Below, piece after piece: positions 3,980-35,795 of a DNA stretch of 36,473 bases. Position 1 is the first letter of the stretch. The number at the start of each line of letters is the position of its first letter. Under the pieces are notes generated by a model. The model saw only the letters and a list, made by a program, of their open reading frames with translations, did no database searches and was not told the origin of the DNA. The DNA is from a virus (lineage: Duplodnaviria > Heunggongvirae > Uroviricota > Caudoviricetes). A program made the position numbers and the translations under genes. The DNA lies in the IMG/VR virus record IMGVR_UViG_2713896902_000005, positions 1-36,473 of that record; one strand, given 5' to 3'.

Positions 3980-5346
3980 TGCACTGGCACCTTCAGAGGG
4001 ATCACCGGCACAAAGCCGGGATGCGTAATGGCATTACGCCGGATAATGTCCGCGTCACGCGCCGCGTTATCAAACCAGGTCGCCGCCAGCACCAGCGCGG
4101 GTAAAACCTCATCCGGCGTGCGCTGAATGATCCGTGCAGACTGTTCAAGGCGCGTGTTGATATCCGCATTCAGATCTGCTTTCACCCGGCGCAGCGCCAG
4201 AAACAGCGCATCACTGGTTGTACGGGACAACTCCTTATCAATTGCCGTATTCAGTGTGTCGCGAATGTCAGTCAGTTCTTCCCACGTCGGCAGGTCAACC
4301 GTGCTTTTCACCGCCGGTGCATTGTTCAGTGCCGGATGCGTGACGGAAGGCCAGCCAGTGCTCTGCGCGGGTGTTGTTGCCTGCCCCACTGCGGCATTCT
4401 GCATCACCGCGGAAGTTGTTGGCGCAGGCAATCGGGTGACGGCATACGCCGCTTCGCTGATTGCGGTCGTACGAAGGATGCTGGCAACCACGTTACGCTG
4501 CTGCGTCGCCGTGGCGGTGGTTTTACTGTCCGTTTTCCAGACGCCGCGCGGTTGCAGATCGCTGCCGAGGCTGACACCGGAAAGTGTTTTGATCATGGTG
4601 ACCAGGTCGCTGGCGTTACCATAAAGGCGTTTCCCGGTACGCCACATTTTCTGCACCTGCTCAACGAAATTTTTGCCTGACGATGGCGGCGGCAGAAGTA
4701 CCGAGATATCCCCCTGCAACAGCCTGGCGGCATCCGATACGGCAGAATCCACCACTTTCATCGCATCAGAAACATACCCAAGCATTGTGCTGGCATTACC
4801 GACGACGTCGTTCTGCACAAAATCTGCCACGCCATCGATACTGAAACTACTGAAACTGTCACTGATGCAGTCATCCAGTGCAGAACAGGATGACATCAGC
4901 GTCTGCGCCGTCGCCGCACCTGATGTGGGGTAAGAGAGTTCTCCCGCTTCGACAAACTTCAGGTCAAAGCGGACAATACGCCCTTCACTCTTCGATGTGC
5001 TGACCCGAACCTCTCCGTCAACACAGACTTTCAGCTCACCGTAAGTCGGATGGACAAGCGTGCCGGGACCGGGTTTATTCAGCGCGTCAATCAGGCGATC
5101 GCGCTGGTCAAAGCAGTCATCTCCCACCACATAAGCCGTGATGGACGGGCGGAAAGTGACTTTTCCCAGATCTTCGGTATAGGGTTTGTCGCGGTTCGGG
5201 TATTCGTGCGTTTCCACACGACGACCGGTTCCCGCACTTTCTTCTTCAACCTTAAACGGCACACCGCGAAATGACGCGTCCTGAAGTCTGTCTTTCCACG
5301 TCATATAAACTCCGTACATAAAAAATCCCACCGGAGTGGGACTCAT
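3976..5346 (-). CDS. DNA circularisation protein N-like tail protein (Mu gpN-like)
   Basis: 456 aa; N-terminus MSPTPVGFFMYGVYMTWKDRLQDASFRGVPFKVEEE resembles the Mu N family; lies between tape measure and baseplate genes. Confidence 0.6.
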   Translation of the reverse strand: MSPTPVGFFMYGVYMTWKDRLQDASFRGVPFKVEEESAGTGRRVETHEYPNRDKPYTEDLGKVTFRPSITAYVVGDDCFDQRDRLIDALNKPGPGTLVHPTYGELKVCVDGEVRVSTSKSEGRIVRFDLKFVEAGELSYPTSGAATAQTLMSSCSALDDCISDSFSSFSIDGVADFVQNDVVGNASTMLGYVSDAMKVVDSAVSDAARLLQGDISVLLPPPSSGKNFVEQVQKMWRTGKRLYGNASDLVTMIKTLSGVSLGSDLQPRGVWKTDSKTTATATQQRNVVASILRTTAISEAAYAVTRLPAPTTSAVMQNAAVGQATTPAQSTGWPSVTHPALNNAPAVKSTVDLPTWEELTDIRDTLNTAIDKELSRTTSDALFLALRRVKADLNADINTRLEQSARIIQRTPDEVLPALVLAATWFDNAARDADIIRRNAITHPGFVPVIPLKVPVQ

Positions 5347-5364
5347 TAACAGATTAATTTTTCA

Positions 5365-7200
5365 TTACCTGCCAAAGCGCGTATAGCCAACATCATGGCT
5401 GACATCAAAACCGCTGGATCGCGTTTCCATAACCCGCATACCCGGAGGCGAATTCACAAAAGAGACCTTGATCTCACCATCAACTTTTGGCGCAGAAGCT
5501 TTGTTAATCATGAAGGGATTCGGGCCTGTGGCACCGGAGGCGTTGTTTGACTGAGCCAGATCCACCGCCGGATAAGGTGTGTATCCCCGCGCCGGTATTC
5601 CCGTCCCATAAGCATCATAAGCACCCGCGCCCCACTGCGCAGAGTTAATGGCATCGACCGTGTCACCGGAACTGTCGGTAAACCACTCAATAATTGGCTT
5701 CAGCTTGTCCCACATATCCTGAAACCACTTAACAACCGGCCCCCAGTTATTGATCACCATCCCCAGCGGCGACCAGGCAAAAACTTTCTTAAGGAGTTCC
5801 CGGCCAGCCTCAAAATAAGGACCAATGGTTTCCCAGAGCTTCTTGAAATAAGGTCCGACAACATCCCAGTTAGTGATAATTAATCCCGCAGCCAGGGCTA
5901 TCGCCGTCGCAATCATGCCAATCGGCGTCATCGACATGATCCTGCTGACAATGCTGATGGCACTGCCCACGCCCATCAATCCCAGTTTCAGAATCGCAAG
6001 ACCGGCAGCAAGCCCGACGACGCCGCGAATAACCCGGGGATTTTCATCCGCAAACTTCGTGAATTTCTCCCCCAACTCCCCCAGCCATTGCGTGATATTT
6101 TTAGCGTCACCAGAAAATGCGCCGCCAATAGCCGCAAGGCCGTTGGCTGCGGTCCCCGTCATTGCCTCCCACAGGTTGGACAGCGTACCAAGCTGTGCCT
6201 GAACACGTTTATTCAGGCTGGCCTGTTTATTCATCTTCTGCTGGATCTGATCGTAGCCATCCTTTCCTTTATCGATCAGCGCATTGACCACTTGAAGGGT
6301 TTCGGCATCATCACCAAATATTGCCTTAAGTACACCGGTTCGCTTAACGTCGGTCAGTTTTCGCAGCTTTGCCAGTTGCCTGAACATGTTATCAAGACCG
6401 CCAAAACTCCCTTTGCCATCAGTAAAATCGAGCTGTACCCCGAGTTTCTGGCGGGCCATGATTTTATTGACGTCCCTGATTTTCTTAACGCTTAATCCGG
6501 ACTGGATAACTTTTCGCAGGGCATTACCTGCCGACTCCCCGTTCATCCCCATCTGATCCATCATGACACTGATGGGGGCAAGACTCTGTGCAGCCTGAAG
6601 ACCGTCCTTATTCACCATCTTCAGAACAGAGCTGGTTTTAGTGAAGAAGGACAGCATGTTGGTGTCGTCAACGCCCAGATAAAACGCCTTCTGAATTGTG
6701 TCGAACAGCCCCATCATGTCTTCTGAGGCCGTTCCGGTAGCATCCTGCATCTTTGCGGCAAACTCGGCAGCCGCTTCCGGTGTTTTTTTCAGTTGTACCG
6801 CAAGATAAGCTGTCGCTTTACCCACACCGCCCAGAATGTTTTCTGCCGGGATCCCCTGACGCACCAGCATCTGCATCATGTTCTGGAAATCAGCCGTTGT
6901 ACCGGGTAGCTGGTTACCCAGGCCAATAGCCAGTTTATTGATGTCCTGAAAGCTCTTTCCAACCTCGCCGTTCGCATCCATCATGGCGACTTTCAGCCCG
7001 GTGGCGGCGTTTTCCTGATCGGCATAAGATTTCAGGGAAAGCGTCAACCCCGCTGCCAGTCCGCCACCAAGCGCCAGCCCACCCTGTGACGCTTCTTCCG
7101 CCTGGCGTTTAAATCCCCGGATTTTCTTTTGCATTTTCGACAGCGCGGGAGAAAGCCTGTCGACACCGGTGATCAACGCCTTAAGCTCAAATTCAGCCAT
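5365..7200 (-). CDS. Tail tape measure protein
   Basis: 611 aa, Ala/Gly-rich with hydrophobic segments; follows the frameshifted chaperone pair. Confidence 0.75.
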   Translation of the reverse strand: MAEFELKALITGVDRLSPALSKMQKKIRGFKRQAEEASQGGLALGGGLAAGLTLSLKSYADQENAATGLKVAMMDANGEVGKSFQDINKLAIGLGNQLPGTTADFQNMMQMLVRQGIPAENILGGVGKATAYLAVQLKKTPEAAAEFAAKMQDATGTASEDMMGLFDTIQKAFYLGVDDTNMLSFFTKTSSVLKMVNKDGLQAAQSLAPISVMMDQMGMNGESAGNALRKVIQSGLSVKKIRDVNKIMARQKLGVQLDFTDGKGSFGGLDNMFRQLAKLRKLTDVKRTGVLKAIFGDDAETLQVVNALIDKGKDGYDQIQQKMNKQASLNKRVQAQLGTLSNLWEAMTGTAANGLAAIGGAFSGDAKNITQWLGELGEKFTKFADENPRVIRGVVGLAAGLAILKLGLMGVGSAISIVSRIMSMTPIGMIATAIALAAGLIITNWDVVGPYFKKLWETIGPYFEAGRELLKKVFAWSPLGMVINNWGPVVKWFQDMWDKLKPIIEWFTDSSGDTVDAINSAQWGAGAYDAYGTGIPARGYTPYPAVDLAQSNNASGATGPNPFMINKASAPKVDGEIKVSFVNSPPGMRVMETRSSGFDVSHDVGYTRFGR

Positions 7201-19712: not shown

Positions 19713-20048
19713 TTACTCCTTAGAGCCACTAAACTTATTACCGATTACTCGCATTGCAGCTCCACGAATGGCATCAACACCGATCAGCCCAACGCCACCA
19801 CCAATGGCAACAGAAAGCGATTTAGGCCATCCGACATACTCAAGCGCGGATGCAAAAGTCAGCGTCAGAGCACCACAGAGCAAAATCTCGAGCGTTTTTC
19901 GCTTCCAGCCACCACCTCCGCCAAAATAGGCGATACGCAAACCAGCCATAACGATCGACATAATCACTGCCCCCAGCGGGGTGTCTCCACGCCACCAGCT
20001 CTGGAACAACTCCAGCCAGTCCGGCCAAGTATTTGGGTTATGAGGCAT
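19713..20048 (-). CDS. Holin
   Basis: 111 aa with hydrophobic segments and charged C-terminus, immediately upstream of the endolysin. Confidence 0.6.
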   Translation of the reverse strand: MPHNPNTWPDWLELFQSWWRGDTPLGAVIMSIVMAGLRIAYFGGGGGWKRKTLEILLCGALTLTFASALEYVGWPKSLSVAIGGGVGLIGVDAIRGAAMRVIGNKFSGSKE

Positions 20049-20144: not shown

Positions 20145-21536
20145 TCACTTAATAGGATTTGGTTTTATGTCGTCAAGCCAGTCGTTATCACCTCTTAGCT
20201 TGGCTACTCGTCCTTCAACATTAGTTAACGGTTTATAAGCAGAGTATTTGCCTATAGCCCTAGCAGAATGCTCTCCAGCAACACGATAATTTTGGAAGTC
20301 CAACTCAAGTCCATGCTGCTCCGCTCTCATTCGAATATAGCCACGAAGCATGTTTTCTCTAAATCGAAACCAAGATGGACGATTCCCTAAAGCAGGGATG
20401 ATGATGCATCCAAATGTCGGTTTCTTCAATGCATTGAACTTTCGCTCAAACGTGGATTTATCTAAAGGTGTTACATCAAGCGATTTGCAAATTTTAACGT
20501 ACGATTCTGATATATGAGTCTTATGTCTGGTCAAATCAGCCATATCGGACATAGCCCAAAGAATATGCTTATATGACTCATCACGTCCCTCTGTTGCATC
20601 CGTGTAACTTTGCCTTAAAGTTTCCGAGACTGAATCAATTGCATCATTTAACCCTTTAATGAAAAGGTTGTAGTCAACAGAGCTGTATTCACGTATTGAG
20701 CTTTGACATGTTAAAAGGATTTTTTCACAAATAAGATGAATGTAGTTCGGGAACCCGTCACTAAGACCCGCAATTTTATAGCGGACAGAATCATCGACAG
20801 TCAGGCCAAACTCATCGAAAGCATTATCAATTATTTGAAAACGACCATTCCATGGTAAACTATCGAGATGTACCTGATGTATTTGTCGCTCACTTGATTT
20901 ATGCCCTCCGATTAAAGTAACGAGAGAATCACCAATCCCCGTAAAAATTAATTTTACTTCACACGCCTGATCACCAAGTTGCTTAATGAGTGATCCAAAC
21001 TTTTGTCGTTCTTCATCAGAGTCAATTTGGTCAAACTCATCGATAACTATATAAGGAATCTTTGAGTGAACTTTAGTTAAAAATTGCAACGCCCGAACGG
21101 CTGCAGAAACTGAGTCAATTTTCAGTTCTGGATAATTATATTTTTGATTTTGACCAGCATTGATACCACCAATTCCAGCCACATTTAAGCCAAAGCTCCA
21201 TCCCTGTGTATCGATTTTCTTATCCTGAGGTGTGCCTCGCAAAATAATGTCATTCATGACACTTGAAAAAGTGGATTCTTTCTCGCAGCCAACCAAAATA
21301 GGTTCAGCATCTTCCTGCAGCTTAAAAGCAACAGTTTGCGCTAAGGATGTCTTTCCTACTCCGCGATCACCATAAATGAAAGCATGCCGACCTGTAGCAT
21401 AAAGCGCCAATTCGAGATCGGTTACATGTTTTTCACGTCCAAATAACAGTTCCATAGAAACAACTGGACCCGTTGGTCGCAAAACTTTATGCAGTTTATG
21501 CATAAAGTCTCGCAAAGAAAGACCTCCACAGAGCAT
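20145..21536 (-). CDS. P-loop NTPase of unknown function (AAA/STAND-like Walker A and B), moron at the Q-S locus
   Basis: 463 aa; Walker A GDRGVGKTS and Walker B hhhhDE (YIVIDEFDQ); clearly lower GC than flanks; bracketed by terminators. Confidence 0.7.
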   Translation of the reverse strand: MLCGGLSLRDFMHKLHKVLRPTGPVVSMELLFGREKHVTDLELALYATGRHAFIYGDRGVGKTSLAQTVAFKLQEDAEPILVGCEKESTFSSVMNDIILRGTPQDKKIDTQGWSFGLNVAGIGGINAGQNQKYNYPELKIDSVSAAVRALQFLTKVHSKIPYIVIDEFDQIDSDEERQKFGSLIKQLGDQACEVKLIFTGIGDSLVTLIGGHKSSERQIHQVHLDSLPWNGRFQIIDNAFDEFGLTVDDSVRYKIAGLSDGFPNYIHLICEKILLTCQSSIREYSSVDYNLFIKGLNDAIDSVSETLRQSYTDATEGRDESYKHILWAMSDMADLTRHKTHISESYVKICKSLDVTPLDKSTFERKFNALKKPTFGCIIIPALGNRPSWFRFRENMLRGYIRMRAEQHGLELDFQNYRVAGEHSARAIGKYSAYKPLTNVEGRVAKLRGDNDWLDDIKPNPIK

Positions 21537-21675: not shown

Positions 21676-22254
21676 TCAAGCACTTTCTTGCTCACTTTGC
21701 AATTTAAATCTGTCGCTATTTGTGCCAAACGCATCACATAGTGGAGCGTACAGGAGCGATTCGGCCAAACTTATCCATGTGTCAACTCGGCGGCGACAGG
21801 TAATGAATGCCCAGTCAGGATGTTTAATATGAAGCTCATTGGCCATTTGCAACTTGCTCTTACGCAGACGATACCGGCCAACAATCACACCGTATAGAGA
21901 ACGGTAATCATTATTCATCAGCACCGAGGCGATCACACCGTCAATCTTCAGGCCTTCATCGTCCGAGCAAAACGCCAGACTACTTTTGTTTTTACTGTTG
22001 AGTATTTCGCGCAAATAAGCTTCGAGCTCTGGTTTCGTAATGCCTGACTTTTTCATACGGCGCAGCGCATCGTTGATTGCAGTTTTGGTAATTTTGCTGG
22101 ATACAAGCAGTTGGTTAAACATGTTACCGCTAGTCCCTCCACTGATATAAGACCAACGCCCCCACATGCGGAGCTTCCCCTGAACCCAGATACTTTCCAG
22201 AGTACGAAGACGAACCATTTCACCCGTTTTGCCAATTTCAGAAGGATTAATCAT
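21676..22254 (-). CDS. Late-gene antitermination protein Q-like
   Basis: 192 aa; position immediately upstream of the tR'-like hairpin and lysis genes; motif resemblance (RMWGRWSY, CSDDEG) to QuuD-type Q proteins as recalled. Confidence 0.55.
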   Translation of the reverse strand: MINPSEIGKTGEMVRLRTLESIWVQGKLRMWGRWSYISGGTSGNMFNQLLVSSKITKTAINDALRRMKKSGITKPELEAYLREILNSKNKSSLAFCSDDEGLKIDGVIASVLMNNDYRSLYGVIVGRYRLRKSKLQMANELHIKHPDWAFITCRRRVDTWISLAESLLYAPLCDAFGTNSDRFKLQSEQESA

Positions 22255-32517: not shown

Positions 32518-32736
32518 GTGGAGAAACATATGCTGAACCTCGATTGTGTTCCAATCTCAACTTATTGCAAAGAAACTGGCGAAACTCCTGAAGCAATAAA
32601 CAAACGTGTACAGCGCGGTGTTTGGCGTGAAGGTGTTCAGGTTTTAAAGGTTGAAGGCGTTAAGGAGAGGTGGATTGATCTTAGTGAGGTTGCAAAATGG
32701 GCCAGACAAAACTGCTCAAACTACCGCGCGGCGTAA
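32518..32736 (+). CDS. Excisionase-like DNA-binding protein
   Basis: 72 aa ORF immediately upstream of and overlapping int; basic winged-helix-like sequence. Confidence 0.5.
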   Translation: MEKHMLNLDCVPISTYCKETGETPEAINKRVQRGVWREGVQVLKVEGVKERWIDLSEVAKWARQNCSNYRAA

Positions 32737-33869
32737 CAATCAGGAAACACCGCCAGGGCGAAACGATCAATATAACTTTCACCTACAAAGGAGTTAAATG
32801 TCGTGAGCCTCTTTCCAATCTGGAAGTAACACCAAAGAACATAAAATACGCCGAGCGCACACTCGGCGAAATTCATAATAAGATCGAAAGGGGAACATTC
32901 ATTTATGCGGAATATTTTCCCCGTTCTGCTCGTTTGAAAATTTTTGGTAATGCTGCTGCAGGCAAAACGGTAAAAATGTACCTGGACGAATACCTTGAAA
33001 TCTGCGAAACGAGAAAACTTTCACCCTCTACGATTGGTGGTTATAAAAAATGCCGTAGTGCGTTAGCCTCACTCCACATTTGCCCTGCAAGTGAATTAAC
33101 ACCAGCAATCCTGAAAGCGTGGATTCAAAGCCAGAAAACGACCTTAAAAACAATTCGCAACCAGTTATCTTTCCTGCGGTCAGCACTTGATGAAGCCGTA
33201 ACCGATGGGGTACTTCAAATTAACCCCGTATCGTTGGTAACTGCTTCGCGCTACCAAAGTGATAAGTCAGAAGCAGAAAGCAGCTACGTGGTTGATCCGC
33301 TATCACCAGCAGAAGTTGATGCATTACTAGCAGCAGCCGGAAACAAACAATGGGAAAATCTGTTCCGGTTCGCTATACATACAGGCCTGCGTAGTTCTGA
33401 ATTATGTGCCCTTCGATGGCGTGATATCGACTTTGTTGGAAAAACTGCCCATGTCCAGAGCGCAAGTGTTGTCGGTGTTATCAAAGGGACAAAGACAAAA
33501 GCCGGTACCCGTAAAGTTGAACTGACTGAAGAAGCAATGTTGGCGCTGATAAATCAGAAGCCATTTACATTCATGAAGGATGCTACTGTCTTTGAAGATC
33601 CAAAGACCAATAAGCCCTGGGCAAGTGCTGATGCAATCAGGAAAAAAGCATGGGTGCCAACATTGCGAAAAGCAGGTATTCGTTACAGAAATCCATATCA
33701 AACTAGGCATACATTCGCCACCCGCCATATCAGCCGGGGAGCAAACCTGTTTTGGCTTGCAGCTCAAATGGGGCATAAAGGGCCGGAAATGTTATTTCGT
33801 CATTATGGTTCATATTTAAAGGAATATGACGGTAATACGACCAGCAATATCACAAAAAAAGCCACTTAA
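32697..33869 (+). CDS. int: Tyrosine integrase
   Basis: 390 aa; catalytic-domain motifs RHTFAT, HKGPEMLFRHYGSY; N-terminal arm-binding region. Confidence 0.85.
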   Translation: MGQTKLLKLPRGVTIRKHRQGETINITFTYKGVKCREPLSNLEVTPKNIKYAERTLGEIHNKIERGTFIYAEYFPRSARLKIFGNAAAGKTVKMYLDEYLEICETRKLSPSTIGGYKKCRSALASLHICPASELTPAILKAWIQSQKTTLKTIRNQLSFLRSALDEAVTDGVLQINPVSLVTASRYQSDKSEAESSYVVDPLSPAEVDALLAAAGNKQWENLFRFAIHTGLRSSELCALRWRDIDFVGKTAHVQSASVVGVIKGTKTKAGTRKVELTEEAMLALINQKPFTFMKDATVFEDPKTNKPWASADAIRKKAWVPTLRKAGIRYRNPYQTRHTFATRHISRGANLFWLAAQMGHKGPEMLFRHYGSYLKEYDGNTTSNITKKAT

Positions 33870-33882
33870 GTGGCTTTATCAA

Positions 33883-34266
33883 TTAGGAGGCTCTCGATTT
33901 AAGCATTTCCGTACACTTAGCAAAGAGCCTCTCAGTTGTTAGAATCGCAACTTCAGACTGTTTAGAAGTGACCGATTGATCAAGTCGATAGTCTGCAACA
34001 ATCCTCTGAGCTTTAAGTTGACTCAGGATAAAACTAATCCCTTTTAGATATCTAGCTTCATATACTTCACTTCCTCTTGAAGCATCGCCCTGCAAATAAT
34101 TGATTAGCCCCTGATGACTGTCTTTCGGCCCGTTTACCATACAAGGCAAGACATGATGGTAAGCGCCATAGTAGGATCTTGCTATAGCATTTCGATAGCC
34201 GATTTCGTCATTACGTTGATGACAGTCTTTTGCAAAACCGAGAAAATCTTGACTATTAACCGGCAT
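33883..34266 (-). CDS. Hypothetical protein, distal gene of int-proximal cassette
   Basis: About 127 aa from ATG 34266 (GGAGG 6 nt upstream; the track start at 34272 is TTG); overlaps the upstream gene stop by 11 nt; AT-rich. Confidence 0.5.
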   Translation of the reverse strand: MPVNSQDFLGFAKDCHQRNDEIGYRNAIARSYYGAYHHVLPCMVNGPKDSHQGLINYLQGDASRGSEVYEARYLKGISFILSQLKAQRIVADYRLDQSVTSKQSEVAILTTERLFAKCTEMLKSRAS

Positions 34267-35071
34267 GTGCAACCCTCCGGGTAATCAGACCTAATTCGGA
34301 GATAGCATTCTGCTCAATATGTGTGTCTTTACATTCAAACCAAACAGCAAAATCTTTACCGACTAAACAATCGTGCTCAGCCATTGAAAAAGCAAGCTCA
34401 ATATTCATATCAGCGATTTGTTCAGCATCAGAAGACTTTGTCATGAATACAATCGCATTCACTTTCTCTTCCGAAATATTATAAAAACGCATTCCCGAAA
34501 GATGAACCTTCTGAGAATCCATGACATTGGCTACATTATTGAAAATAAGTTCATATTCTAAACCAGAAAGATCGGCACGTTGCTTAAAGGATTCGACCTG
34601 GGAAACAACTTCATCAAGATGGTTGTCCATTTTTTCAGGCTCCTTATCTCCGAACAATTTGGAGTATGACTGGAAATACTTCTCCGCCAACGCCATCTTC
34701 CCCATAAAGAGGGAGTTTTCATAAGCTTGAAGATAAATAAACGGGGATATGAAGCTTTCAGCAAGCTTAATGCTTGTTTCAAAGCTTTTCTTCAACGTAC
34801 CGTAATCTGACAAGAAAACAAGAAAATTCTTTGCAACAACCTCATTATGGCATACCTGCAAGGAACGCTCAAAGAAGCCTATCGCCTCATTCACTTGACC
34901 ATGTGCACCATAGACCAACGCTAAAAGATAGTCCTCAGAGACAGGATCTCTAAGTGCTTCAATCTCACGTAACATCCTTCTAAAGCTAAAGTCATCAATC
35001 CTCACTCCATCTTTGAGGTATTTAGTTAGCCGCGCGCTAATAACTGATGCTTTTTTTGCTGGCTGCAACAT
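34256..35071 (-). CDS. Hypothetical protein, proximal gene of int-proximal cassette (helical, possibly repeat-containing)
   Basis: 271 aa ORF with ATG start; AT-rich; no family recognised. Confidence 0.5.
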   Translation of the reverse strand: MLQPAKKASVISARLTKYLKDGVRIDDFSFRRMLREIEALRDPVSEDYLLALVYGAHGQVNEAIGFFERSLQVCHNEVVAKNFLVFLSDYGTLKKSFETSIKLAESFISPFIYLQAYENSLFMGKMALAEKYFQSYSKLFGDKEPEKMDNHLDEVVSQVESFKQRADLSGLEYELIFNNVANVMDSQKVHLSGMRFYNISEEKVNAIVFMTKSSDAEQIADMNIELAFSMAEHDCLVGKDFAVWFECKDTHIEQNAISELGLITRRVAHAG

Positions 35072-35503
35072 TAAAAACCTTATCTTACAAATAGTTGGTA
35101 ATGATGTTGAATTATTTTTTGTTCTTTATGGCTAATAAGATTACATGAAGGGACAACTTCTGGCCACCTTAGAAAACACTCACTTTAGTAACAAGAGTCA
35201 ATAATATTGTTGACAAATCACAAAAAAACAAACTTATCCAAAATAATCTGGTTTATTACAAAGCCTCTGTGTATAAATCTGTGCATAACATCATTTTTAC
35301 ACACATTTTTTATAAAAATATTTTTTAGCAAAAAATGCTATCTATCTCCGAAACTGCAACCACAAACCATTAATTCCAAATGAAACTATTTTAAAATAAA
35401 TAGTAAGACAGTAACAGGACAGAAAAAGTTCCGCAAAAGAGCCGCGTGTAAAATCAACAATATTTGGCTATTTAAATTCAATGAATTACATAACTATGGA
35501 CAC

Positions 35504-35528
35504 GGGTTCAACTCCCGCCAGCCCACCA
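35504..35528 (+). other. tRNA 3'-end-like fragment (putative att core at the prophage-chromosome junction)
   Basis: GGGTTCAACTCCCGCCAGCCCACCA has a T-arm-like GGG-TTCAACT-CCC and ends in ACCA; upstream is AT-rich non-tRNA sequence; a terminator follows. Confidence 0.3.
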
Positions 35529-35562
35529 AACATTGATACACTAACGTTCAGTGAAGTTCACT

Positions 35563-35596
35563 AAGCCCGTACAGCACAAGCTCTGCGGGCTTTTTT
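35563..35596 (+). terminator. Rho-independent terminator
   Basis: AAGCCCG...CGGGCTT stem followed by a 6-T run. Confidence 0.5.
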
Positions 35597-35692
35597 ACGT
35601 CTATTGTCATCCAGTGAGAATTGCTGAGAACCACGACTTATGGCACCCTTTTGGGGCCCCAACGGAAAGGGTCCAAAACTTGAGGGAACCAA

Positions 35693-35795
35693 ATGGCAAA
35701 ACTCGCAAAAAAAACTTACTGATACTGAAATCAAAAATACCAAACCCGGAGATAAGGAAATCAACCTCTTTGACGGAGATGGATTGCGACTATAG
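35693..35795 (+). pseudogene. N-terminal remnant of a P4-type integrase (frameshifted, truncated)
   Basis: ATG GCA AAA CT then a poly-A slip, then LTDTEIKNTKPGDKEINLFDGDGLRL and a stop; matches the conserved arm-binding N-terminus of P4-family integrases. Confidence 0.5.

Follow-up and report, generated by a model that had tools for sequence, protein, structure and literature searches.

An HEPN-domain protein and a TPR-like partner form a phage-borne two-gene cassette that may act as a toxin-antitoxin-like defence module

What is encoded by two overlapping genes that lie between the integrase gene and the attachment site of an Escherichia coli prophage? The question is raised by a stretch of 36,473 nucleotides (nt), positions 1 to 36,473 of IMG/VR record IMGVR_UViG_2713896902_000005 and hereafter the window, which is the right-hand part of a lambdoid E. 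coli prophage. A preliminary description, made from the sequence alone, had noticed at positions 33,883 to 35,071 two co-oriented open reading frames (ORFs) of 271 and about 127 amino acids (aa), had found no motif that it could assign in either product, and had proposed a sensor-effector or toxin-antitoxin (TA) pair. Here we find that the small gene encodes an HEPN-domain protein, that the large gene encodes a TPR-like solenoid followed by an alpha/beta domain, and that the two genes form an essentially obligate pair carried by temperate phages as mobile cargo. The pair may well be a TA-like abortive-infection or superinfection-exclusion module, with a putative HEPN ribonuclease (RNase) as effector and the TPR protein as its keeper.

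The AlphaFold2 (AF2) model of the small protein (predicted local distance difference test, pLDDT, 93; predicted template-modelling score, pTM, 0.86) consists of four long helices (residues 5-17, 21-42, 71-93 and 101-126) and an insert at residues 51-64, in the four-helix up-and-down arrangement of the HEPN fold. Its best Foldseek matches were 2hsb, sacsin HEPN, TT1696, 2q00, 4nqf, TM0613, HepT and AbiV, and the five top matches in PDB were all HEPN structures, with probabilities of 0.90-1.00. A profile of the small family, compared with PDB, also matched HEPN proteins (9xbd, E=2e-5; 9xbc, E=1e-4; AF0298, which is 2hsb, E=0.01), and the SRAYY, SH and R..SDY motifs agreed in the alignment with 9xbd. 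The top PDB match of this profile, polyubiquitin, was dismissed as an artefact in which nine 23-residue stretches, each with an E-value of about 600, are summed. PF05168 was matched by 22 of 27 aligned relatives (best 2e-5, judged by E-value and not by gathering score). As for PADLOC, its HEPN_IX model was matched by 17 of these 27 relatives and by the window protein itself (E=1.3e-3), and nine relatives matched PDC-M05B, the HEPN subunit of a nucleotidyltransferase-HEPN candidate system. Close relatives are labelled UPF0332 or HEPN by some sources, one of them bearing PF05168, and phrog_5176 matches the small protein. We assign the small protein to the HEPN domains and, by the motif layout described below, to the AF0298/AbiV-like HEPN-T subgroup.

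Is this HEPN domain a nuclease? The canonical Rx4-6H motif is not found at the end of helix 3, where no histidine follows Arg88 and the protein reads R88-I-V-A-D92-Y93. Across 89 distinct relatives, down to about 28% identity, E21, R25, R30, Y32, Y33, R88, D92 and Y93 are invariant, and H37 and H51 are kept in 88 of the 89; E21 stands at the start of helix 2 and H51 at the start of the insert helix (51-59). In AF0298-like HEPN-T proteins and in AbiV, the arginine at the end of helix 3 is kept and the histidine is absent or replaced by aspartate, while the insert that joins helices 2 and 3 supplies an alternative conserved histidine and helix 2 holds an acidic residue (PMC3710099). The small protein has exactly this layout, with R88, D92, H51 and E21. 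Such constraint on polar residues points to a putative active site rather than to a degenerate binding domain. One could argue that the domain is no nuclease and instead binds a nucleotide or another ligand, as the HEPN domains of sacsin or kanamycin nucleotidyltransferase do, the pair then being a regulatory or adaptor complex: the canonical histidine is replaced by aspartate, some members of the HEPN-T clade bind nucleotides and are no nucleases (PMC3710099), and a solo copy is tolerated in Yersinia phage YP3. We regard this as quite improbable, given that the invariant Arg/His/Glu/Tyr set sits at the very positions of the proposed alternative HEPN active site, that AbiV is reported to be an RNase that cleaves ribosomal RNA (rRNA), and that the genes occur in a mobile, cargo-like context.

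The large protein belongs to a family that has no Pfam, NCBIfam or PADLOC (2.0.0) model of its own. Word-indexed searches, even profile-based ones, retrieved 10 close relatives only, and it took an exhaustive HMMER search, over 1.84 billion representatives, to collect about 90 full-length relatives, all of 245-290 aa; the same search also drew long TPR proteins that align to residues 45-85 only. The AF2 model, built from only eight sequences (pLDDT 84, pTM 0.83), comprises an N-terminal solenoid, a linker, a C-terminal alpha/beta domain and a disordered tail (residues 250-271). The N-terminal half is made of stacked helix-turn-helix repeats with the small/large residue pattern of TPRs, and TPR repeats are the only Pfam matches of the family. 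The helical or repeat-like character that the preliminary description had ascribed to this protein is therefore that of a TPR-like solenoid, and its statement that neither protein carries an assignable motif is superseded for both. phrog_17809 matches the large protein (E=4e-38).

Conservation in the large family follows another pattern. None of the polar residues is invariant among 67 relatives, the conserved positions being TPR-type small or hydrophobic residues together with N82, and the best-conserved motif, D215...(D)M222-N223-x2-L-A...A231...W244-F245, lies in the C-terminal domain. For this domain we found no real PDB match with its profile and no Pfam or PADLOC family. Judged on these features, the large protein looks non-enzymatic. 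We considered whether its C-terminal domain could be a degenerate MNT nucleotidyltransferase and rejected the idea, without a direct profile comparison to MNT families, on the lack of G[GS]/DxD and of a conserved acidic pair and on the a-a-b-b-a-b order. The hG[GS] and [DE]x[DE] signatures and the Pol-beta-like fold of an MNT partner were likewise not found, and no PADLOC nucleotidyltransferase model matched the large family.

Do the two genes function as one unit? Their coordinates, their minus-strand orientation and the 11-nt overlap with GGAGG ahead of the second start, all noted in the preliminary description, are borne out by the sequence (Table 1). The GGAGG lies 7 nt from the small ATG, and a TTG two codons upstream of this ATG is an alternative start that would yield 129 aa. 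The overlap and the Shine-Dalgarno sequence suggest that translation of the two genes is coupled. In 20 other distinct loci, the small gene starts between -15 and +20 nt relative to the large stop, and 1- or 4-nt junctions are also present among the viral loci, as read from ORF coordinates. Since gene order and junction are kept in 78 distinct homologous pairs, both ORFs are real genes and not chance ones. E. coli G749 matches the queried region at 99.9% identity, and RefSeq labels both proteins hypothetical.

The association was then followed from either partner. Both genes are found as a pair in 79 of 80 IMG/VR viral contigs, and the 80th has both with the HEPN gene truncated. All 12 GTDB species-genome loci found via the small protein have a large-family gene directly upstream, one of them decayed; the hosts are Mixta, Serratia, Pseudocitrobacter, Enterobacter, Xenorhabdus, Aeromonas, Gilliamella, a Thiotrichaceae metagenome-assembled genome and Proteus, which holds the decayed copy. 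Reciprocally, all six loci reached from distant large-family members, located by exact-protein look-ups, have an HEPN gene of the small family downstream. Four sequenced phages carry the cassette. The pairwise-identity matrices of the two proteins are strongly correlated (r=0.91, Mantel p=0.001, 78 distinct pairs), the HEPN protein being more conserved than its partner in 98% of comparisons (mean identity 0.44 versus 0.28). We conclude that the pair is essentially obligate. Obligate pairing and co-divergence are compatible with a protein antitoxin that binds its toxin, without being proof of it. The only solo HEPN of the small family that we saw is in Yersinia phage YP3 (PV092592, 3007-3366, 119 aa, E=2e-19 to the family profile), flanked by a duplicated small virion gene and a baseplate wedge gene; because this phage carries it without the large partner, the HEPN protein is not necessarily lethal alone.

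Some individual loci deserve mention. In Proteus hauseri, the decayed cassette (5136-6108 of the locus) has its large gene split in two ORFs, and of the HEPN protein only residues 7-42 are recognisable. Metagenome scaffold ERZ23488275 (632-3450) bears two divergent copies of the pair in tandem (266+129 aa and 266+130 aa), the HEPN proteins being 57% identical and the large partners 42%. In Klebsiella phage ST405-OXA48phi1.3 (MK416008), an intact HEPN ORF of 131 aa (4752-5147) shares 17 nt with the large-family gene that precedes it, and the GenBank record shows two short coding sequences instead (4804-4935 and 4932-5147); since the intact overlapping ORF exists, this split is an annotation error.

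All contexts in which we found the cassette are phage or prophage, and plasmids hold no copy of the large gene. Neither protein has homology to phage structural or regulatory proteins; such homology, or the cassette as conserved core in unrelated non-mobile contexts, had been named in the preliminary description as what would speak against its proposal. At least 78 distinct pairs occur in phages of Enterobacterales, Aeromonas, Vibrio, Gilliamella and Burkholderia, including a P2-like Vibrio phage, Klebsiella phage Chronis and Burkholderia phages. About 26 of the 80 viral loci lie at int-att junctions, with two different integrase types, and other positions are between the Q antiterminator and the lysis genes or in tail modules before the tape measure gene. 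In E. coli, the cassette is present in 44 of 5426 complete genomes, always at ≥99% identity. Other E. coli prophages that share the integrase and the ssrA attR slot hold different cassettes (CP145698, OZ369279, CP051714), the alternative cargo being DarT1 with its NADAR antitoxin, a 577-aa AAA ATPase with a DNA adenine methylase, or a three-gene STAS-like set. Because sister prophages carry other cassettes there, the int-attR slot is a real exchange point for TA and defence cargo, as had been surmised of the int-att interval. We read the cassette as self-contained, mobile two-gene cargo (a "moron") of temperate phages. A prophage of Serratia fonticola has two different HEPN cargo genes: an ApeA-like HEPN protein (1-1589 of the locus; weak ApeA_NTD1 and HEPN_Apea matches) is encoded about 3.6 kb upstream of the TPR-HEPN pair.

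What would such cargo do for the phage or its host? It could be a plain addiction module acting by post-segregational killing, in which a labile large antitoxin and a stable HEPN toxin stabilise the prophage or its cargo slot and have no anti-phage role. The TA-like layout, with an upstream partner, an overlapping downstream HEPN gene and tight co-inheritance, would fit this explanation, as would the catalogued proteins closest to the small one, which are HEPN subunits of nucleotidyltransferase-HEPN TA systems (PDC-M05B), and the location beside the integrase at the prophage edge in about one third of the viral loci. We nevertheless consider it unlikely: the partner lacks a DNA-binding or autoregulatory domain, its 140-residue TPR array exceeds the needs of simple neutralisation, and no copies are found on plasmids, where addiction modules are common. 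In addition, the corresponding slots elsewhere hold defence systems, and a solo HEPN exists.

The position of the pair in other phages raises a different explanation. In more than half of the viral loci it is internal to the phage and reads in the direction of the late genes, either following Q or ahead of the tape measure gene in the tail module, and late transcription would run through it there; it is also present in sequenced phage genomes. The pair could thus serve lytic growth or establishment, the TPR protein being an adaptor that targets the HEPN RNase to host RNAs or defence components for takeover or counter-defence. This role also appears improbable to us, as in the window and in approximately 26 viral loci the pair lies at the prophage edge, where it converges with int and follows its own conserved upstream block in the classic layout of a lysogen-expressed moron, and as the presence/absence pattern and the replacement by DarTG in sister prophages fit optional cargo rather than a function in the lytic cycle.

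The explanation that we favour, and to which we give slightly better than even chances, is that of a TA-like abortive-infection or superinfection-exclusion module. Both genes would be expressed jointly from the upstream control region of the cassette, the large one first and the small one by translational coupling. The HEPN active site would combine Glu21 of helix 2, the alternative His51 of the helix 2-3 insert and Arg88 at the end of helix 3, with Asp92-Tyr93 replacing the canonical histidine, and the HEPN protein would most likely be an RNase whose action shuts down translation. As for the large protein, it most likely binds its HEPN partner and keeps it inactive, taking the place of an MNT antitoxin. 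Its TPR half would be the likely receptor of a trigger, probably a protein of the infecting phage, such that in a lysogen the pair may act as an abortive-infection or superinfection-exclusion system. HepS, Tha and AbiV, compared with the pair below, are precedents that favour this model. A more elaborate scenario, which we put forward tentatively and with distinctly less confidence, is that of a novel kind of HEPN immune module, in which the TPR-plus-novel-domain protein would have taken over from the MNT enzyme as keeper of a non-canonical HEPN RNase (R...DY with a distal histidine) and its TPR array would directly recognise a protein of an infecting phage and thereby release or activate the nuclease. 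This would be a two-component, protein-triggered abortive infection spread via temperate phages of Gamma- and Betaproteobacteria, in which paralogous cassettes such as the tandem pair of ERZ23488275 would diversify trigger specificity.

Several observations weigh against a TA-like defence module. On the side of the small protein, the Foldseek E-values are weak (1e-2 and above; 1e-2 to 0.2 for the five top PDB matches), as is usual for small helical bundles, the window protein itself has no Pfam match at E<=1, the canonical histidine is missing, and the RNase activity of the variant with aspartate for histidine has been a published prediction since 2013. The YP3 copy stands without a partner. 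On the side of the large protein, 271 aa is large for an antitoxin, Pfam and NCBIfam scans of the protein and 67 relatives detected no DNA-binding domain (helix-turn-helix, ribbon-helix-helix or AbrB), the sole near-miss being VapB15 (E=0.048, 13.8 bits against a cutoff of 80), and PADLOC-DB 2.0.0 has no model that matches the protein or consistently matches its 67 relatives. Finally, many copies lie inside late operons (Q-lysis, tail), making expression during lytic growth also plausible. The sensor-effector or TA pair proposed in the preliminary description nevertheless is the best-supported reading on homology, anatomy and context, from which we infer, rather than observe, toxicity and phage defence, together with RNase activity, a physical complex, neutralisation and trigger sensing.

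The surroundings of the cassette (Table 1) are those of a prophage edge. The int gene and the small gene are convergent, their stop codons being 13 nt apart, which agrees with the opposite orientation noted at the outset. The hairpin between them is bordered by an A-run and T-rich sequence and is likely a bidirectional terminator. On the other side, E. coli ssrA aligns to window positions 35498-35600 with 82-89% identity, and ARAGORN detected no complete transfer-messenger RNA (tmRNA) gene in the window; the ssrA fragment is hence attR, the attachment site that the preliminary description had placed next to the cassette. The AT-richness it had remarked on is also evident, the G+C content being 40.5% in the cassette and 28.7% in the 408 nt upstream of the large gene, compared with 50.6% over the window as a whole.

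Upstream of the large gene, a non-coding block 65-97 nt 5' of its ATG, with a -10-like TGTAAT at 35140-35145, is conserved across loci with 30-58% protein identity and differing prophage positions. The block travels with the cassette and is a candidate for its own promoter or operator. A promoter scan gave no consensus sigma-70 promoter on the minus strand 5' of the large gene, and missed this block too. With Rfam, we found no known RNA adjoining the genes, such as a type III antitoxin, but only the tmRNA fragment and sub-threshold noise.

Table 1. Features of the cassette and of its surroundings, in window coordinates.
Feature	Position	Strand	Details
Large gene	34256-35071	minus	ATG...TAA, 271 aa; WP_059251285 in E. 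coli G749
Small gene	33883-34266	minus	ATG...TAA, 127 aa; WP_001145022
Gene junction	34256-34278	minus	11-nt overlap 34256-34266 and GGAGG Shine-Dalgarno sequence 34274-34278
TPR-like helical solenoid, residues 1-140	34652-35071	minus	Eight helices between residues 4 and 140
C-terminal alpha/beta domain, residues 152-247	34331-34618	minus	Order a-a-b-b-a-b; from secondary structure and conservation
Conserved non-coding block GGTGG-N14-TTCATGTAATCTTA	35136-35168	minus	Alignments of upstream regions
Hairpin AAAGCCACTTAAGTGGCTTT between int and small gene	33858-33877		Terminator scan and sequence
Prophage integrase (context, outside the cassette)	32697-33869	plus	Arm-DNA-bind_2 E=5e-23, Phage_integrase E=1e-16
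ssrA (tmRNA) 3' fragment, attR boundary	35480-35528	plus	Partial Rfam tmRNA match, E=0.005

Other elements of the window were also recorded. Directly 3' of the ssrA fragment, Rfam gave a partial match to the IsrM small RNA (35510-35596, plus strand, E=2e-8; 37.8 bits against a gathering score of 376), which is probably shared ssrA-flanking sequence and not an IsrM gene. Past attR, a short ORF on the plus strand (35640-35795) reads ...LTDTEIKNTKPGDKEINLFDGDGLRL, which we take to resemble the N-terminus of a P4/CP4-57-type integrase, and may be the relic of an older island integrated in ssrA; a full integrase-domain gene lies at the corresponding position in E. coli S1-KEN-03-A. Further inside the prophage, a second cargo gene encodes a 463-aa AAA_16/STAND-like NTPase (20145-21536, minus strand; AAA_16 E=8e-10, nSTAND1 E=1e-4). 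It lies in an AT-rich stretch (GC 0.40-0.42) between the Q antiterminator gene (21676-22254) and the holin gene (19713-20048), in the Q-lysis slot that hosts the TPR-HEPN pair in Serratia and Yersinia prophages. Its only PADLOC match is a weak one to mad8 (E=2e-4), and G749 carries different genes at this place.

HEPN nucleases are among the commonest effectors of immunity and TA systems, and their silencing and activation are known for few. In this cassette, an HEPN-T domain of a kind normally controlled through AMPylation by an MNT enzyme is obligately paired with an apparently non-enzymatic TPR protein, and 44 complete E. coli genomes list both of its proteins as hypothetical. If defensive, the pair would add a compact system of 1.2 kb with separable sensor and effector, would provide a test of whether the HEPN variant with aspartate for histidine plus an alternative histidine is a real nuclease, and would be one more example of hosts that are armed by their prophages through exchangeable cargo slots, this slot holding DarTG in sister prophages.

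How does the pair compare with known systems? What is new here is the large family and the pair, the HEPN superfamily and TPR-HEPN associations in other families being known, and we do not regard the cassette as a categorically new system. WP_059251285 and WP_001145022 are absent from the literature and from the DefensePredictor supplements, as far as these are searchable, and no paper on this pair was found in the literature searched. The PADLOC matches of the small family are to generic HEPN models only, and no single PADLOC-DB 2.0.0 system is matched by both proteins. DefensePredictor DS-28, an HEPN protein of 163 aa with a 252-aa protein, was examined as a candidate and rejected, given its opposite gene order, canonical RNSVAH motif and unrelated sequences. 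DarTG1 of E. coli S1-KEN-03-A is likewise a two-gene cassette of this size class, and it is placed and oriented as the present one is: it converges with an integrase that is 95% identical and adjoins the ssrA-derived attR. The relation is one of position only, its proteins and chemistry (DNA ADP-ribosylation) being unrelated. A DNA-binding domain such as type II antitoxins use to autoregulate was not detected in the large protein.

HEPN domains are combined with TPR-type repeat proteins elsewhere, in LA2681 (TPR fusion or operon), AbiU2 (Sel1-repeat operon) and C6orf70 (TPR fusion) (PMC3710099). These are separate families, however, and keep the canonical Rx4-6H; the single match of PADLOC AbiU among 67 large-family members (E=0.015) is noise. 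HepS of Gifsy-1 and Tha of Staphylococcus aureus prophages are HEPN abortive-infection RNases triggered by phage tail proteins (PMC13043305 and PMC11087260, respectively). Like the cassette, they are HEPN accessory genes of temperate phages; they act on incoming phages and are triggered when phage structural proteins bind them directly. HepS nonetheless is solo, has a canonical R100-H105 motif and no conserved neighbour, and senses its trigger itself (PMC13043305), whereas the present cassette has a non-canonical motif and an obligate TPR partner, which would take over sensing; no sequence relationship to them was seen, though none was searched for.

AbiV, a Lactococcus abortive-infection HEPN RNase with an antitoxin, is reported to cleave rRNA (bioRxiv 10.1101/2024.05.05.592566). 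It is grouped with AF0298-like HEPN-T proteins by the alternative conserved histidine N-terminal to the motif (PMC3710099), is among the Foldseek matches of the small protein and itself has an anti-phage role. By contrast with our pair, AbiV has 201 aa and an RNA antitoxin, abiV2 (type III), where the partner here is a TPR protein, and the Foldseek similarity is weak (E about 0.8). We found no PADLOC AbiV match and, with Rfam, no known RNA beside the genes that would place the cassette in the AbiV system.

The HEPN-MNT systems (HepT/MntA, type VII; PADLOC candidate PDC-M05) share with the cassette an upstream partner gene, a downstream, overlapping HEPN gene and their tight linkage, and the small protein is a member of the HEPN-T clade, which is associated with nucleotidyltransferases. 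Moreover, Tyr93, beside the R88-x3-D92 motif, lies near the AMPylated position of HepT, in RX4HXY. In that system MntA AMPylates HepT (PMC7641770). Here, the canonical histidine is an aspartate and the partner is a TPR solenoid with an alpha/beta domain devoid of a nucleotidyltransferase signature. Because the large partner is not a nucleotidyltransferase, neutralisation of the AMPylation type is not expected, and the TPR protein would instead keep the HEPN protein inactive by binding it.

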